Positions 8,900-26,480 of a stretch of DNA of 64,000 nucleotides are shown in pieces. Each line of letters starts with the position of its first letter. The stretch's first letter is position 1. The notes beneath the pieces are model-generated. The model had not been told where the DNA came from. It was given only the letters and a program-made list of their open reading frames with translations, and ran no database searches. The stretch is from Candidatus Iainarchaeum sp. (GTDB lineage Archaea; Iainarchaeota; Iainarchaeia; Iainarchaeales; 1-14-0-10-31-34), in NCBI GenBank assembly GCA_040755695.1, contig JBFMAK010000001.1, positions 384,637 to 448,636 on the forward strand, read 5' to 3'. A program made the position numbers and the translations under genes.

Positions 8900-9320
8900 A
8901 ATAATATATGTTCAATATCAGTATATAAATCTTTTCATTACTAATGAAAACTTATGTTCATTTTAAATGAACAACTTTGCCGCACGTAAAAAATTAGCTT
9001 TTTTGCCTTTTACAAACAGTTATGTTATTCCCAACAATTACTTTAAAATGGGTTCGCATTAAATAATTCTATTGATTTAAAATGCAAAGTGAGCTACTTC
9101 CACTGCCAAAAACATGCTAATTCTCTTAATCCAAGCCTTTTCTCTTTTAAAAAAAGAGAAAAGTCTACGGTCTATCCAAAAGAGAAAAATAAATTTGTAA
9201 TTAATAATTCAATTATCAATAAAAACAATTGCAACGAATTAATTCTTACTTCAAAAGCGAAGCAAGTACTACCAAGCAAAGCGCAGGTAGTACACCGGCG
9301 TCAACTGACTGAACGGTTGA

Positions 9321-9502
9321 GGGGTTGTAGTCTAGCCTGGTCAGGACTCTGGCTTTGGGACGGACCCTTTTCTTTTTTAGAAAAAAAGAAAAGTGTTACG
9401 TTATCCCAAAAGAAAAAAGGGGTTAGTTACCCCAAAAAAGAAAGGGATTGTTTTTTGTCCGCAAGAAAGCCAGTAACGGGGGTTCAAATCCTCCCAACCC
9501 CA
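9321..9502 (+). tRNA. tRNA-Pro(TGG) with 108-nt intron at canonical 37/38 position (intron 9360..9467)
   Basis: Acceptor GGGGTTG/CAACCCC+A. D-arm GTCT-AGCCTGGTCA-GGAC. Anticodon stem CTGGC...GCCAG. Loop TT-TGG-G|intron|A. T-arm GGGGG-TTCAAAT-CCTCC. Intron ends are complementary (CGGAC/GTCCG), consistent with a BHB splice motif. Confidence 0.65.
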
Positions 9503-9576
9503 CTCGAACCATTAAATGGTTCAATATTACAGCAATTCAATAATGCACGTAGTGCCAGCTGCCAATAGCAGCTGTA

Positions 9577-9604
9577 GGAGGTATCGGAACCGCAAGGTTC
9601 TGAT
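9577..9604 (+). promoter_or_regulatory. Conserved 28-nt hairpin motif GGAGGTATCGGAACC-GCAA-GGTTCTGAT (copy 1 of 3)
   Basis: Palindrome GGAACC/GGTTCT with a GCAA loop, immediately upstream of tRNA-Ser. Near-identical copies at 17544 and 26338(-). Confidence 0.5.
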
Positions 9605-9606
9605 TT

Positions 9607-9776
9607 GCGGAGGTGGCGGAGTGGTCCAACGCACCAGCTTGGAGCCTGCCCCTTTTTCTTTTTAAAAAAAAGAAAAAGCGGCAAGTTGCCGGAAAAAGAA
9701 AAAGGTTTTGGTGGCCGGATAGCTGGCGAGCGCAAGCTCACGCGAGTTCGAATCTCGTCCTCCGCGTCCGCCCTTT
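9607..9776 (+). tRNA. tRNA-Ser(GGA), class II, with 76-nt intron (9645..9720)
   Basis: Acceptor GCGGAGG/CCTCCGC+G. Anticodon stem CCAGC...GCTGG. Loop TT-GGA-G|intron|A. Long variable arm CGAGCGCAAGCTCAC. T-arm GCGAG-TTCGAAT-CTCGT. The intron contains a palindrome plus mini-repeat copy. Confidence 0.6.
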
Positions 9777-9869
9777 TTCTTTCTTTCCAAAAGAAAGAAA
9801 AAGTGCAGGTTGCCCAAAAAGAAAGAAAGCGGCAAGTTGCCCAAAAGAAAAAAAATAAAGTTGCAGTTG

Positions 9870-10022
9870 GGGGGGGTAGTCTAGCTTGGTTAGGATTTCA
9901 GCTTGGGGTAAGCCCCTTTTCTTTTTTCCAAAAAGAAAAGGCCTTTGGGTTCAAAAGAAAAAACCTAAAAAAGGAAGGCTTCCAATATGCTGACGACCCG
10001 AGTTCGAATCTCGGCCCTCCCA
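9870..10022 (+). tRNA. tRNA-Pro(GGG) with 79-nt intron (9909..9987)
   Basis: Acceptor GGGGGGG/CCCTCCC+A (one G-U pair). D-arm GTCT-AGCTTGGTTA-GGAT. Anticodon stem TCAGC...GCTGA. Loop TT-GGG-G|intron|T. T-arm CCGAG-TTCGAAT-CTCGG. Intron ends pair as AAGCC/GGCTT. Confidence 0.6.
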
Positions 10023-10266
10023 CTCTGCCCCTTTCTTTCTTTTAAAAAAAGAAAGAAAGTGGTAAGTTGCCCCAAAGAAAGAAAAGAAAAGTGCAGGTTG
10101 CCCAAAAGAAAAATGGTGAAAGTTTACAGTCCATCCAAAAGAGAAAAAGCATAGGTTGCAATTTAATTCCAAAAGGAATTAAATGCACATTAAAACCGAA
10201 AGGTTTTAATCGTACCCCAAAGAAAGAAAATACAATTAAATATAAGTTTCAATTAAGGTTTTAATC

Positions 10267-11748
10267 ATGAAAGAAAAAGGCAGTGAAAAGGAAGAGAAGG
10301 TTACTTTCAATATTGACAAGGAAAAGAATTTCTCTGAGTGGTTCACTGAAATAATAAAGAGGGCTGAACTGGCTGACTTAAGGTATAACGTGAAAGGCTT
10401 TATTGTATTCCAGCCTTGGAGTGTTATTTCAATGGAATTAATGTATGCTGAATTGGAAAGGATTCTGAGAATGAAAGGCCATAAGCCTTACTGGTATCCT
10501 GCAGTAATACCTGAAAGCAATTTCAAATTAGAGAAAGAGCACGTTGAAGGATTTGCCCCTCAAGTTTTCTGGGTTACAGAGACAGGCGCAGGAGAAAAAT
10601 TGGAGGAAAGGCTTGCTTTAAGGCCTACTTCAGAAACTGCATTCTACCAAATGTTTGCTTTATGGATTAGGAGTTACAAAGACCTGCCTTTCAAGTCATA
10701 CCAGAGAGCCCAGGTCTTCAGGTACGAGACAAAAGCCACAAGGCCTTTCCTTAGGAGCAGGGAAATTTATTGGATTGAAAGCCATAATGCTTTTGCCTCA
10801 AGAGAGGATTCAATTAAACAAGTGAAAGAAGACATGCAGTCAACAAAGGAATTATTGTATGATTTCCTCTGTGTGCCATTCATTTTCTTTGAGAGGCCTC
10901 AGTGGGACAAGTTTGCAGGGGCAGAATCAACTTATGCTGCTGATTCCTTAATGCCTGACGGAAGGGTAGTGCAATTGCCTTCAACCCATTTGTTGGGGCA
11001 GAACTTCTCCAAGCCATTCAATATTACTTTCAAGGACGAGAAAGGTTCTGATCAGTACGTGTGGAATACGTGCTATGGGCCTGCTGTGAGCAGGATTTTT
11101 GCTGTAATGATGGCAATACACGGAGACAATAACGGCTTGGTTTTTCCTTTTACTGTTTCTCCAGTGCAGGTAATAATAATTCCAATTTTTGATGAAAAGA
11201 ATAAAGAAAAAGTTTTGGCTGAAGCAGAAAAGGGCAGGAAGGAATTGAGTGAATTGGATTTGAGGGCTGAAATAGATGCAGGAGAAGAAAGGCTGGGGGA
11301 CAAGCTTTACTTCTGGGAGATGAAAGGCATTCCCCTGAGAATTGAATTAGGGGAAAAGGAATTAAAGGGGAAGAAGGCCCTCTTGTTCAGGAGAGATACA
11401 AAAAAGAAGGAATTGGTTGCATTGAATGAATTGAAGAAAAAGATTCTGGCTGAAGGAAGGAATTTGAATGAAAGCCTTAGAAAGAAAGCAGAGAAATTCT
11501 TACAGGAATCAATTGTTGAAGCAAAAAGTATTGAAGAAGCAAAGAAACTTGTGCAGAAAGGAAAGATTGCAAGAGTGGAATTCTGCTCTATTGGGTTGGA
11601 TGCAGTTAAATGTGCTGAAGCAATAGAAAAGGAAGCGCAGGCCTCAGTTAGAGGGAAAAGAATTGACTTGGAAGAGAAAACCAAAGGCAATTGCATTGTG
11701 TGCGGCAAAAAGGCTTCTGTTATAGTGTACATTGCAAGGTCTTATTAA
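10267..11748 (+). CDS. proS: prolyl-tRNA synthetase, archaeal/eukaryotic type
   Basis: Class II aaRS motifs are present (FRYETKATRPFLRSREIYWIESH..., GxG motif 3). 493 aa with a C-terminal zinc-binding CxxC...CxxC. Lies directly downstream of two tRNA-Pro genes. Confidence 0.85.
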   Translation: MKEKGSEKEEKVTFNIDKEKNFSEWFTEIIKRAELADLRYNVKGFIVFQPWSVISMELMYAELERILRMKGHKPYWYPAVIPESNFKLEKEHVEGFAPQVFWVTETGAGEKLEERLALRPTSETAFYQMFALWIRSYKDLPFKSYQRAQVFRYETKATRPFLRSREIYWIESHNAFASREDSIKQVKEDMQSTKELLYDFLCVPFIFFERPQWDKFAGAESTYAADSLMPDGRVVQLPSTHLLGQNFSKPFNITFKDEKGSDQYVWNTCYGPAVSRIFAVMMAIHGDNNGLVFPFTVSPVQVIIIPIFDEKNKEKVLAEAEKGRKELSELDLRAEIDAGEERLGDKLYFWEMKGIPLRIELGEKELKGKKALLFRRDTKKKELVALNELKKKILAEGRNLNESLRKKAEKFLQESIVEAKSIEEAKKLVQKGKIARVEFCSIGLDAVKCAEAIEKEAQASVRGKRIDLEEKTKGNCIVCGKKASVIVYIARSY

Positions 11749-17543: not shown

Positions 17544-17570
17544 GGAGGTATCGGAACCACAGGTTCTGAT
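17544..17570 (+). promoter_or_regulatory. Conserved hairpin motif GGAGGTATCGGAACC-ACA-GGTTCTGAT (copy 2 of 3)
   Basis: Lies in the divergent intergenic region between 17344..17529(-) and 17628..18941(+). Confidence 0.5.
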
Positions 17571-17627: not shown

Positions 17628-18941
17628 ATGAAGGTTCTTTCAATAATTTTGTTTCTGTGTTTCATGCTGGGCCTTGCGGGAGCCATCTCCTCCCAGGAGG
17701 CAAAGGATTTCCTTACAAGCGAAAGCCATTTCCTGGAGGAAGGGCAGAGCATTGAAATCCTGCCCAATTTTCCAGTGCAATACAATAAAGAGAAGTTCTG
17801 GGTTGCAGTCATAATTACAGAAGAGAGCCCTAGCGGCTTCCTTGCAGTGAAATACTCTGCAAAAGAGATTTCGCTTAATAAGACAGCAAACACAGAATTA
17901 TTCAAGACAGTCTATGTTTTAAGGTCACTGAAAGACTACAAGGAAAAAAATTCTGCTGTCTGGGTTTTTGCGAGCTCAAACAAGACCTTCTTCCAGACCC
18001 TCAATTCTGTCACCTCAGGCTCAGGTTCAGTTTATTATACTCTGGGAAACATTTCAGACGAATTAAATACTTCTGATGCCAGAACCCTCACAAACGAAAT
18101 GAGTGCAATCCTCTCCGAGATGAGCTCAAGGGCTTTCACCTTAGAAGAAAAAACAGACGAAATAATCAAGGTAGAAAACGATTTTGTTAATTCAACCAAT
18201 ACAAGCCAAACAAATGCATTGAAAGAAAAATATGATGAATTCTTTCCCTTGCTTGAAGAAATAAACAGCTTAAGGCAGGACTACGAAAACAAGACTGTTG
18301 AGTTAAAGACCTTAATCTCCAAATCAGACAAGACGGCAGGAGAAAAACAGCAGTTGATTGCGCTGGCGAGTTCTCCTCAGGAATTCCAGAAACTTGACTC
18401 AATAGCAAAAAATTCTTCTGACTTGTATCAAGGCATCCAGTCCATTTACGCTAAAGCCATTTCAAATGTCTCGACATGGGTTGACAACGTTGACTCAATG
18501 AAGAAAAGGAATGATGCCTACAACCTGCTTTACTCTGATGACCCTGATTTGTACAAGAAAACAAAAAACTATTTCTCCAAGCTTAACGATTTAGTGAAGT
18601 TTATTCTGGATGAAAACAACAAGCCTTACTGGAAAGAATATGAAAAAATTGACTCAATGCAGTCCAACTGGAATAAGGCAGAATTGAACTTCAAGCAGAA
18701 AAAATACGAGAACGTGCAAACTTATGCCTTGAAGGCAAAGAATGACGCAGTAACCATATTCCAGGGAGGCTTTGTGCAGCAGGGAAGCGACATGCAAAAT
18801 CTGATTATTTACATTGCGGTAGGATTAATTGTACTGCTTGTTGCGCTCATGCTCTTCAAGAACAGGAACAAGCTCTTCCCGTCTCCAACGCAAGCGCAAA
18901 AAGAACAGGAAATAATCCCTTACGGCTGGCAGAAAAGCTGA
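17628..18941 (+). CDS. hypothetical secreted protein with N-terminal signal peptide and C-terminal TM anchor
   Basis: N-terminus MKVLSIILFLCFMLGLAGA. C-terminus LIIYIAVGLIVLLVALMLF followed by basic residues. Confidence 0.45.
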   Translation: MKVLSIILFLCFMLGLAGAISSQEAKDFLTSESHFLEEGQSIEILPNFPVQYNKEKFWVAVIITEESPSGFLAVKYSAKEISLNKTANTELFKTVYVLRSLKDYKEKNSAVWVFASSNKTFFQTLNSVTSGSGSVYYTLGNISDELNTSDARTLTNEMSAILSEMSSRAFTLEEKTDEIIKVENDFVNSTNTSQTNALKEKYDEFFPLLEEINSLRQDYENKTVELKTLISKSDKTAGEKQQLIALASSPQEFQKLDSIAKNSSDLYQGIQSIYAKAISNVSTWVDNVDSMKKRNDAYNLLYSDDPDLYKKTKNYFSKLNDLVKFILDENNKPYWKEYEKIDSMQSNWNKAELNFKQKKYENVQTYALKAKNDAVTIFQGGFVQQGSDMQNLIIYIAVGLIVLLVALMLFKNRNKLFPSPTQAQKEQEIIPYGWQKS

Positions 18942-25650: not shown

Positions 25651-26337
25651 TTATTTCTCTTTCACGTTCCAGCTCTTCCTGTGCTCTCTGTCTTTGGATT
25701 CTTCTCGGGCCAGCTTTGCAATAACGCTTGCAGCGCCTATTACTGGCTCTAAGTCGTCGCCTTTCACTATGAATTCAACGTGCTTTAATGTCCCATTCAG
25801 TCTGCTGCCGTCAGCCTTAACCTTTGCCTTTACCCCTAATTCATCAAAGAGCAGTACAAGATTGTTTATTATTCTGACTTCAATTTCATTCAAGTTCAGT
25901 CCATTATTCCTTAACTGGTCTATGAGCCGGGAATTCAAAGAAACAGTTGCTACTGCAAGGGCGTTCCCTGAAACAATTTCAGCTTTCTCTTTTAGGTTGC
26001 CTGTCTTCTTGCTGTCCCTCAACTCTCTTAACTTATTGCTGTCGCCCAAAACAAAGCTTACAACAAAAGAGCCAAAGCTTTCCCCTCTTCCAGCCTCATC
26101 AATGCCTAAAACCAGTTCTTCTTCCAAACCCATCCTCTGCAAGATTTCCTCAGTGACCTTCTTGCAGTCATTGCCCTGTACTACAAGCTTTCCTGAAGAG
26201 TACAAGGTTACAGTGCAATTGCCTGCCTTGCACCTCAATTCCTCGAAGGCATTCTTTGTCTCCACCTGAGGGAATTCCCTGAGGATTTCAATCAATTGCC
26301 TTTTCTGCTTTGAACCAAAGTTAAGAACCTTCTCCAT
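25651..26337 (-). CDS. rnhB: ribonuclease HII-family protein with ~75-aa N-terminal extension
   Basis: GIDEAGRG catalytic motif, DSK, and GDD...VIGAASVIAK C-terminal motif. Confidence 0.55.
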   Translation of the reverse strand: MEKVLNFGSKQKRQLIEILREFPQVETKNAFEELRCKAGNCTVTLYSSGKLVVQGNDCKKVTEEILQRMGLEEELVLGIDEAGRGESFGSFVVSFVLGDSNKLRELRDSKKTGNLKEKAEIVSGNALAVATVSLNSRLIDQLRNNGLNLNEIEVRIINNLVLLFDELGVKAKVKADGSRLNGTLKHVEFIVKGDDLEPVIGAASVIAKLAREESKDREHRKSWNVKEK

Positions 26338-26364
26338 ATCAGAACCTGCGGTTCCGATACCTCC
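26338..26364 (-). promoter_or_regulatory. Conserved hairpin motif GGAGGTATCGGAACC-GCA-GGTTCTGAT (copy 3 of 3), abutting the rnhB start codon
   Basis: The minus-strand sequence reads ...GGGAGGTATCGGAACCGCAGGTTCTGAT-ATG. A degenerate partial copy (GGAGGCTCGGAACCATACTTCC) lies about 17 nt further upstream at 26381..26403. Confidence 0.5.
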
Positions 26365-26480
26365 CTTAATTTTATTTTATGGGAAGTATGGTTCCGAGCC
26401 TCCTTTTTCCATTTTAATAGCATATTTATTATTAAAGAAAATGGTTATATATTGTACTGAAAAAAAAATTAATTCTTTAG

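Follow-up and report, generated by a model that had tools for sequence, protein, structure and literature searches.

The 64,000-nt stretch of DNA considered here (the window), from a Diapherotrites/Iainarchaeota metagenome-assembled genome (MAG) of Candidatus Iainarchaeum sp., carries the same short hairpin-forming sequence at three intergenic sites, and the question this raises is whether the hairpins regulate the genes beside them or belong to something more widely dispersed. The motif family, which we refer to as E, is defined by a GGAGGT tail followed by an imperfect 9-bp hairpin with a free loop of 3-5 nt. We put at roughly 0.55 the probability that E is a non-autonomous, copy-and-paste short interspersed palindromic repeat of the DPANN archaea, and not a regulator of the three window genes. 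It is apparently undescribed, and appears unusual in its invariance across DPANN phyla, in its strict polarity to the ends of RNAs and coding sequences, and in target duplications that are long and variable.

The three window copies (Table 1) are solitary and lie 8-9 kb apart. A preliminary description of this DNA had placed them correctly, in all coordinates and strands and also in their contexts, just 5' of a tRNA-Ser gene, between divergent genes and on the ATG of rnhB, and they are not part of a larger duplicated segment. The full pattern GGAGGTATCGGAACC-N3/4-GGTTCTGAT gave no match in 100 dinucleotide-preserving shuffles of the window, and its core, GGAACC-N2-8-GGTTC, occurs four times in the window against 0.10 expected, which upholds the view of a real, non-random hairpin with a free loop. 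The stem first drawn, GGAACC/GGTTC(T), is present and conserved, but the true helix is longer, with ATCGGAACC pairing with GGTTCTGAT over 9 bp that include one G.U. Folding of the motif strand gives -10.1 to -12.2 kcal/mol (z = -2.7 to -3.9), whereas the opposite strand folds more weakly, at -6.6 and -7.8 kcal/mol, because the G.U turns into an A x C mismatch. The GGAGGT tail is unpaired and 5' of the hairpin in each copy, so that the proposed sequestration of GGAGG by the hairpin does not hold, this segment being outside it and single-stranded in the fold. No further copy was found at six edits or fewer anywhere in the window; a relic upstream of rnhB, discussed below, is more diverged.

Table 1. 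Features of the window, with the loci elsewhere that carry E as a tRNA leader or trailer
Feature	Position	Strand	Details
E copy 1	9577-9604	+	28 nt, GGAGGTATCGGAACC-GCAA-GGTTCTGAT; ends 2 nt (TT) before tRNA-Ser
E copy 2	17544-17570	+	27 nt, loop ACA, same GGAGGTATCGGAACC and GGTTCTGAT arms
E copy 3	26338-26364	-	27 nt, loop GCA, same GGAGGTATCGGAACC and GGTTCTGAT arms; TGAT end abuts rnhB ATG
tRNA-Ser(GGA)	9607..9766	+	68-nt intron; Rfam tRNA, 43.5 bits; aragorn -i gives 9606-9769
rnhB (RNase HII gene)	25651..26337	-	PF01351 on homologues; P0001 (Diapherotrites MAG) 100% identical
Right-hand target duplicate	26328..26337	-	ATGGAGAAGG; first 10 nt of rnhB coding sequence; basis, window against L121
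Left-hand target duplicate	26402..26412	-	ATGGAAAAAGG; orphaned start-codon remnant upstream of insertion; basis, window against L121
Older decayed E copy	26379..26403	-	GGAGGCTCGGAACCATACTTCCCAT; about 6 changes from consensus
AT-rich linker	26365..26378	-	AAAATAAAATTAAG; between old and new copies
Sense tRNA-leader loci			L027, L038, L042 (both copies), L056, L085, L098, L153, L169, L171, L178, L190, L192, L229, L234, window copy 1
Antisense tRNA-trailer loci			L001, L008, L019, L049, L062, L083, L106, L155, L168, L243

That these three copies belong to a dispersed, insertion-polymorphic repeat family common to DPANN was not anticipated in the preliminary description, and emerged from the genome-wide pattern search that it had called for. 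One genome per species of bacteria and archaea (596 Gb) was scanned for GGAGGTATCGGAACC-N3-5-GGTTC, a pattern of 20 specified bases, and at least 120 loci matched, against about three chance matches expected on our own estimate. At least 114 loci are genuine, carrying the continuation ...GGTTCTGAT, and nearly all of these are contigs of DPANN MAGs, a few having other labels; the phyla represented are the Iainarchaeota/Diapherotrites and the Woese-, Aenigmat-, Alti-, Nano-, Micr-, Parv- and Undinarchaeota, with several copies per MAG and very roughly 5-30 per genome. Six of the matching loci were set aside as coincidences without the following TGAT, five of them (L007, L048, L076, L093 and L117, on high-GC bacterial and Thermoplasmata contigs) being a chance match inside one conserved coding gene. 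Viral contigs gave no matches, and Rfam returned no family at gathering scores for the whole window, nor at an E-value of 10 or below for the motif, save one chance match to JPX_2 (E-value 8). Literature searches with the motif as a string, in both strands and both alphabets, found unrelated primers only, and searches by topic found no description of the repeat.

Conservation within the family is a matter of letters as well as of shape. The four bases left unspecified after the searched pattern are TGAT in 116 of about 125 copies, and the loop is free (GTA in 39, GCA in 25, TAA in 12, GAA in 9, and others). Across 880 kb of loci and window, 124 exact cores compare with only two full-length near-variants and three single-mismatch half-copies, besides truncated copies that are exact halves. 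The combination of a conserved stem and a varying loop had been read as covariation, yet no compensatory change is seen in the three window copies or in the approximately 124 exact-core copies elsewhere; with no covariation, and with stem letters invariant across phyla, it is the sequence that is conserved and not the fold alone. Occasional variants do lengthen both arms together, as in GGAAACC/GGTTTC (L023), GGAACCCC/GGGGTTC (L021) and GGAAAAAC/GTTTTTC (L153). A metagenome scan anchored on the hairpin alone yielded 123 matches, about 49 of them family members, and 36 of these have the exact GGAGGTA tail while a few have GGAAGTA or lack the A (GGAGG-T), so the tail is strongly, not absolutely, conserved.

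Copy 3 can be set against an empty counterpart. The sister locus L121 encodes an RNase HII 89% identical to that of the window, with which it is syntenic over ~13.9-36.3 kb, and its rnhB site lacks the element, reading ...AATAAATATGCTGGTTGAA-ATGGAAAAGG-TCCTTAAC. A look-up of the window RNase HII by exact sequence gave no record. The corresponding order in the window is ATTAAA, ATGGAAAAAGG, the decayed copy, AAAATAAAATTAAG, the perfect copy, ATGGAGAAGG and TTCTTAAC, and a flanking duplication of ~10 nt, ATGGARAAGG, includes the start codon. Since the site is empty in L121 and both filled and duplicated in the window, the insertion duplicated about 10 nt including the start codon. Judging from this alignment, copy 3 is a recent insertion, and the intact rnhB is a gene regenerated by it directly after TGAT. 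The degenerate partial copy noticed earlier at 26381..26403 is real and spans 26379-26403 (-), where it reads GGAGGCTCGGAACCATACTTCC(CAT). The linker AAAATAAAATTAAG may be a TATA box now serving rnhB.

The region upstream of rnhB now consists of GGAGG, the hairpin and AUG without a spacer. GGAGGT matches the ...ACCUCC end of a DPANN 16S rRNA (L015), and its linear distance to the rnhB AUG is 22 nt, as against the 5-10 nt of purine-rich Shine-Dalgarno sites; folding of copy 3 would bring GGAGG near the AUG, and the two may together form a hairpin-bridged ribosome-binding site. Such 'split' Shine-Dalgarno sites are known, for example in phage T4 gene 38, and copy 3 is like them in layout, as are about 10 other loci in which GGAGG and the hairpin precede an AUG within 0-1 nt and folding would give a workable distance. 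Occasional co-option as a GGAGG-plus-hairpin leader would be a secondary use of some copies of E, and not the nature of the family.

The other two window copies present different histories. Copy 2 lies between a 61-aa minus-strand open reading frame (ORF), whose TATA-like box it adjoins, and an ORF starting at 17628, with 57 nt between it and that ATG, and it alone among the window copies precedes TTTTT. It is an older intergenic copy, and the orthologous site in L121 also carries E, though in rearranged form: two copies truncated at the 3' end stand before a full one, in the order GGAGGTAT / GAGAATATTTAAAG / GGAGGTATCGGAACC / TCTTGTAGG / GGGGTATCGGAACCGCAGGTTCTGAT, one truncated copy being preceded by a re-copied flank. 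Copy 1 is the leader hairpin that tRNA-Ser genes share in this lineage. Three tRNA-Ser isoacceptor genes on three contigs have E, TT and the tRNA in common, the likeness starting exactly at GGAGG with unrelated sequence upstream; the junction of copy 1, including its rare GCAA loop, recurs in L169, and an E-TT-tRNA-Ser junction is found in L153 and L085 too.

Wherever the element lies, its TGAT end is toward a gene or mature RNA and its GGAGG end toward variable sequence. The first nucleotide of a tRNA follows TGAT within 0-2 nt in at least 14 loci (Table 1), and a start codon follows it within 0-1 nt in 10 copies, all in the sense orientation, divergent genes never being nearer than 13 nt; the bias toward gene 5' ends suggested in the preliminary description is thereby borne out. 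Copies in the antisense orientation place ATCA 0-4 nt after the tRNA discriminator in at least 10 loci (Table 1), 2 nt after the 3' end of 16S rRNA (L015) and 4 nt after that of 5S rRNA (L189). Introns of tRNA genes accept both orientations: the canonical 5' splice site is followed at 0-6 nt by the start of an antisense copy (in tRNA-Thr, Glu, Arg, Gly and Leu, and in two with a mis-called anticodon), and in five tRNA-Ile(GAU) loci, with introns of 43-181 nt, the end of a sense copy falls precisely on nt 38. Genuine protein genes also carry the element in frame, in the linker of a BolA-glutaredoxin fusion, in the N-terminal region of FtsY, in a nucleotidyltransferase and in a HerA-like ATPase. 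Three frames are used, giving GGIGTxGSD, EVSEPxVLI and, from the antisense strand, SEPxVPIPP, and with a 3-nt loop the 27 nt amount to nine codons; when these host proteins were compared with all loci by tblastn, no empty site that was informative came to light. There is a preference for AAG just upstream of E, and no T run downstream of 122 copies beyond positions +5 and +6.

At L015 (1431-1500) the antisense element, in which GAUACCUCC-3' comes after the hairpin, has a loose likeness to the 3' end of 16S rRNA, where GAUCACCUCC comes after helix 45; standing 2 nt past the real 16S 3' end, it pairs with a degenerate sense copy downstream. Mimicry of the 16S 3' end by the antisense strand was considered and set aside, the likeness being only loose.

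Further signs of insertion come from the flanks. A second filled and empty pair is provided by the Aenigmatarchaeota, where E precedes a gene start in L025 and is missing from the same start in L104. Flanking direct repeats scoring at least 12 accompany 21 of 123 copies, compared with two in shuffled controls, and ~16% of copies have flanking duplications of 12-85 nt; over all the cases recorded, lengths run from about 10 nt up to 85 nt. The left-hand repeat lies directly against GGAGG and the right-hand one starts 0-9 nt past TGAT; what is duplicated ranges from 42 nt of the 3' end of a histone gene, stop codon included (L002), through a promoter region (L009), to ~85 nt from the T-loop of tRNA-Cys onward (L077). 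In L014, L053, L068, L084 and L135 a complete tRNA gene is followed by one to three units of E, GTGG and a copy of the tRNA from its T-loop (GAATC...) through the trailer, and in L014 (6796-6990) and L053 (7555-7690) these T-loop-to-trailer segments make up (E-X)n arrays. In no fewer than four tRNAs, all different and on different contigs, the same junction, GTGGGAATC, stands in place of GTTCGAATC; the change had been considered as a signature of reverse-transcription error and is rejected as such, its recurrence in at least four loci making it look templated. Beside a tRNA-Gln gene in L097 (4980-5250), a 31-nt unit, GGAGGTATCGGAACCGTAGGTTCTGATTGAG, is arrayed head to tail with an assembly gap inside; the array might represent a donor locus, an inserted concatemer or an effect of assembly.

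At the window rnhB, L023 and L055, tandem copies comprise a perfect one next to the right-hand repeat and a decayed or variant one upstream, and near-exact partial copies precede a perfect copy in L018, L040 and L049. New copies come from a perfect donor elsewhere in the genome, and the older ones just upstream are decayed or truncated. There are also partial inverted (head-to-head) copies resembling snap-back products, CGATACCTC-ATAAG-GGAGGTATCG, filler of 0-5 nt at the TGAT junction, and copies that are complete at the 5' end and truncated at the 3' end.

Dispersed near-identity, both orientations, in-frame copies, insertion polymorphism, truncated or decayed neighbours and variable duplications together argue for a non-autonomous mobile repeat. 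We are less confident of how it moves than that it moves, and have considered both an RNA and a DNA intermediate. The variable duplications, filler, 3'-truncated copies, snap-back partial inverted copies and concatemer-like arrays favour template switching over a transposase of fixed stagger. A polymerase would switch template into E and then back, this being either a replicative or repair enzyme or a reverse transcriptase that has reached the end of an abundant RNA and leaps to the 3' end of an E transcript, and short homology, such as GAATC in the T-loop, CTGAT or boxes like GGAGG, would guide its return; such a switch followed by a homology-guided return would account for a junction that is precise at the TGAT side and illegitimate at the GGAGG side. 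The version in which a DNA polymerase makes the copy choice seems to fit the TGAT-GTGG-GAATC T-loop junction of at least four tRNAs, CTGAT in tRNA-Ile and GGTTGAA before the L121 rnhB ATG, but microhomology at the return junction is not proven, because L002 and L004 do not fit. The version with a reverse transcriptase would best explain junctions that coincide with RNA 5' and 3' ends, although such junctions, the variable duplications and the concatemer-like arrays are only suggestive as a sign of mobilisation by that enzyme. Neither version explains the identity across phyla, which implies a conserved sequence-specific partner.

Several observations weigh against a mobile repeat. Its copy number is low for a selfish sequence, clean filled and empty pairs number only two, ~84% of copies have no detectable duplication, and the exact-match sampling of all collections inflates the apparent invariance. 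Some positions look maintained rather than random: four loci share the tRNA-Ser leader with the same TT spacer, and five have the element in the tRNA-Ile intron. In the orthologous introns of L066 and L120 the element is identical at 27 of 27 positions with flanks 71% identical, which could reflect function rather than re-insertion. For the 149 ORFs closest to copies, all within 281 nt, the 25 commonest Pfam families contain neither a Y1 transposase nor a reverse transcriptase, these ORFs including two tyrosine recombinases only. When 1399 ORFs from 120 loci were clustered, no family recurred next to E; those seen in five loci at distance 0 are coincidences in high-GC coding sequence without TGAT. 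Ten large ORFs of the window are housekeeping genes with no RVT.

The maintained positions lead to the strongest rival, an unlikely one in our judgement, in which E is a functional cis-acting RNA boundary element. Its hairpin, next to maturation sites (tRNA 5' and 3' ends, rRNA 3' ends, splice junctions and mRNA starts), would be read sequence-specifically by a conserved DPANN factor that guides or helps end processing, or E would release a small RNA; the loose likeness of the antisense form to the 16S rRNA 3' end belongs to this view. A hairpin base always toward the mature RNA end, letter-perfect conservation across phyla with the loop alone free, the recurrence at tRNA-Ser leaders and at the intron 3' end of tRNA-Ile(GAU) in several loci, and full identity of the element within the otherwise diverged L066 and L120 introns are what such an element would be expected to display, and in the pre-tRNA-Glu of L063 a canonical bulge-helix-bulge has the ATCA and TGAT ends as its outer helix. 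The same role would, however, have to be played by two different RNAs, given the two orientations, and the in-frame copies must be translated. Only a minority of tRNA genes have the element, the close relative L121 does without it at rnhB, perfect copies have truncated and decayed ones accumulated next to them, and the flanking target duplications mark insertion and not function.

We regard as distinctly doubtful a reading that derives E from an RNA of 27-31 nt, of which it would be the trace in DNA. This RNA would be a preferred landing site for a template-jumping polymerase or reverse transcriptase, which at the end of an abundant RNA (tRNA, 5S, 16S or highly expressed mRNA) would jump to the 3' end of the E RNA, the chimeric cDNA then recombining into the cognate gene. 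Its GGAGG boundary might be set by cleavage of an antisense RNA that mimics the 16S rRNA 3' end. Were this correct, E would be the smallest retro-mobile sequence known and a natural tag of RNA 5' and 3' ends in DPANN genomes.

Transposition by a dedicated enzyme is the substance of another alternative, rather improbable on present evidence, by which E is an archaeal counterpart of the repetitive extragenic palindromic (REP) sequences of bacteria and of REPINs, a single-stranded DNA hairpin with a 5' tag moved by an HUH/Y1 transposase (of the RAYT or IS200/IS605 TnpA type) encoded by one gene per genome. Y1 transposition of the IS200/IS605 kind makes no target duplications, and neither the long variable duplications nor the 0-5-nt filler at TGAT is expected of it. 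For a transposase the result is the one described above, with no Y1_Tnp among those commonest families, no recurrent neighbour and no RAYT gene found nearby. The resemblance is nonetheless considerable: both are non-autonomous and dispersed imperfect palindromes of 20-40 nt with a short conserved tag directly 5', here GGAG.GT, and a single G.T mismatch tells the strands of E apart; the head-to-head partial doublets CGATACCTC-ATAAG-GGAGGTATCG recall REPINs, and bacterial REPs are likewise known inside ORFs (PMC3733652), where E is found occasionally. REP tags are defined by a conserved GTAG or CGTC tetranucleotide at one end (PMC3733652), and the GGAGGT tag is neither. Unlike the bacterial sequences, E is archaeal, keeps one sequence across phyla and has a low copy number, and its occurrence in tRNA introns and precise abutment to tRNA, rRNA and start-codon boundaries are not properties of REP.

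A site in duplex DNA for a dimeric regulator, or a core promoter at -27 to -1 of leaderless tRNAs and mRNAs, is highly improbable. The palindrome, the sense copies that end 0-2 nt before a tRNA +1 or the A of ATG, and the upstream AAG preference would suit it, but the arm spacing varies from 3 to 5 nt, E contains no TATA-like sequence, and copy 2 is 57 nt from the nearest start codon. From antisense copies in introns and at RNA 3' ends, transcription would run into the gene; such copies, the tRNA-intron copies in both orientations and the in-frame ORF copies are equally at odds with the shared transcription-factor site proposed in the preliminary description. Just as little can be said for a mobile bulge-helix-bulge mini-intron cut out by the archaeal splicing endonuclease: copies are frequent at the canonical site of tRNA introns, and apparently occur at the T-loop too, and in L063 alone E supplies the outer helix of a canonical motif, yet E by itself is an uninterrupted 9-bp hairpin without the two 3-nt bulges, separated by a 4-bp helix, that mark such introns, the tRNA-Ile introns with a sense copy give no canonical motif, most copies, all three window copies included, lie outside any exon-exon context, and ORF copies keep the frame as if translated and not spliced. 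Also disfavoured, each by at least one feature tested, are a miniature inverted-repeat transposable element (27 nt against 70-300 bp with the terminal inverted repeats of a parent insertion sequence, and duplications of ~10-85 nt or absent against a fixed length), a box C/D small RNA, whose box-D end had been suggested earlier (such RNAs have a C box, RUGAUGA, near the 5' end, a guide, and a CUGA box near the 3' end, whereas here only CUGA is present, with no C box and nothing in Rfam but the chance JPX_2), a CRISPR repeat (unique spacers of about 30-40 nt would be expected, but the window copies are solitary, L097 has a 31-nt period without spacers, and the L014 and L053 segments are near-identical copies of a tRNA 3' end) and an intrinsic terminator, a G+C-rich hairpin with a T run after it (only copy 2 is followed by a T run, and the 122-copy profile has none beyond +5 and +6).

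As a mobile repeat, E has partial parallels elsewhere. Rickettsia palindromic elements are likewise tolerated in frame in protein genes and in RNA genes, in the reduced genomes of host-dependent microbes, but they are about 100-150 bp long, confined to Rickettsia and divergent between copies, whereas E is 27 nt, near-invariant and polar to gene ends. Fujishima et al. (2010) reportedly described transposed bulge-helix-bulge introns in tRNA genes of the Thermoproteales, one short sequence recurring in different tRNA introns at canonical and non-canonical positions and implying mobile intron gain. Like these, E recurs in introns of different archaeal tRNA genes; unlike them, it is also found in leaders, trailers, rRNA flanks, ORFs and gene starts, in both orientations and in several phyla. 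The GC-rich palindromic clusters of yeast and other fungal mitochondria are very short mobile hairpins that encode no enzyme, insert into intergenic and coding sequence and make short duplications. E shares with them its very short hairpin, intergenic and coding insertions and flanking duplications, but the clusters are organellar, have another sequence and fixed short duplications, and show no tie to RNA gene ends.

DPANN archaea, whose genomes are very small, are known almost exclusively through metagenomes, and E would be a genome-shaping force not yet described there. It explains why several tRNA genes are missed by standard finders, the causes being long introns and partial duplicates of 3' ends, and accounts for some odd nine-residue inserts in proteins (GGIGTxGSD, EVSEPxVLI and SEPxVPIPP). 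It offers a ready sequence marker of DPANN contigs for binning, and its strict polarity to RNA gene ends provides a handle, from sequence only, on transcript boundaries. A concrete question also becomes testable, namely what enzyme attaches a hairpin at the ends of stable RNAs or of the genes for them.

Some smaller observations concern gene starts. TATA-like boxes upstream of several copies predict transcription starts inside E. In four Aenigmatarchaeota loci (L025, L033, L074 and L078) the element at gene starts ends in TAAT and not TGAT (GGTTCTAATTATG). The sequence ATAATATCCGAACCTTCTGAAAG precedes E in L074 and L078, and also in the TGAT-ending gene-start copies of L032, L080, L104 and L114; it looks like a decayed copy whose 5' end has turned TATA-like, and ATAATATCCGAACCTTCTGAAAG and E may together be a portable promoter-plus-leader cassette.

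Others concern the tRNA cluster around copy 1, which lies just upstream of a prolyl-tRNA synthetase gene (10267-11748). The three tRNA genes, at 9321-9503, 9606-9769 and 9869-10023, have introns of 108, 68 and 79 nt at the canonical position; all three were missed by ARAGORN with default settings, and only the middle one was found by Rfam. The first looks by sequence like tRNA-Pro(TGG), its label from aragorn -i being Ser(tga). The cluster was sought in a sister genome by way of the synthetase, for which no close orthologue turned up; in L122 and L123, which are related more distantly, the synthetase gene has no tRNA cluster next to it. A second repeat family occupies 9128-10240. Its members are polypyrimidine/polypurine hairpins (CCCTTTTCTTTTT-loop-AAAAAGAAAAGGG), and after each of them come GYRRGTTGCCC-like boxes; they fill the introns of the three tRNA genes and the spacers around them, and hairpins of the same kind fill the tRNA-Ser introns of L169 and L153. 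Directly 3' of the first tRNA, at 9513-9540, GAACC-ATTAAAT-GGTTC is followed by AATATTAC, and this segment, weakly similar to E, may be a decayed antisense copy at the tRNA 3' end.

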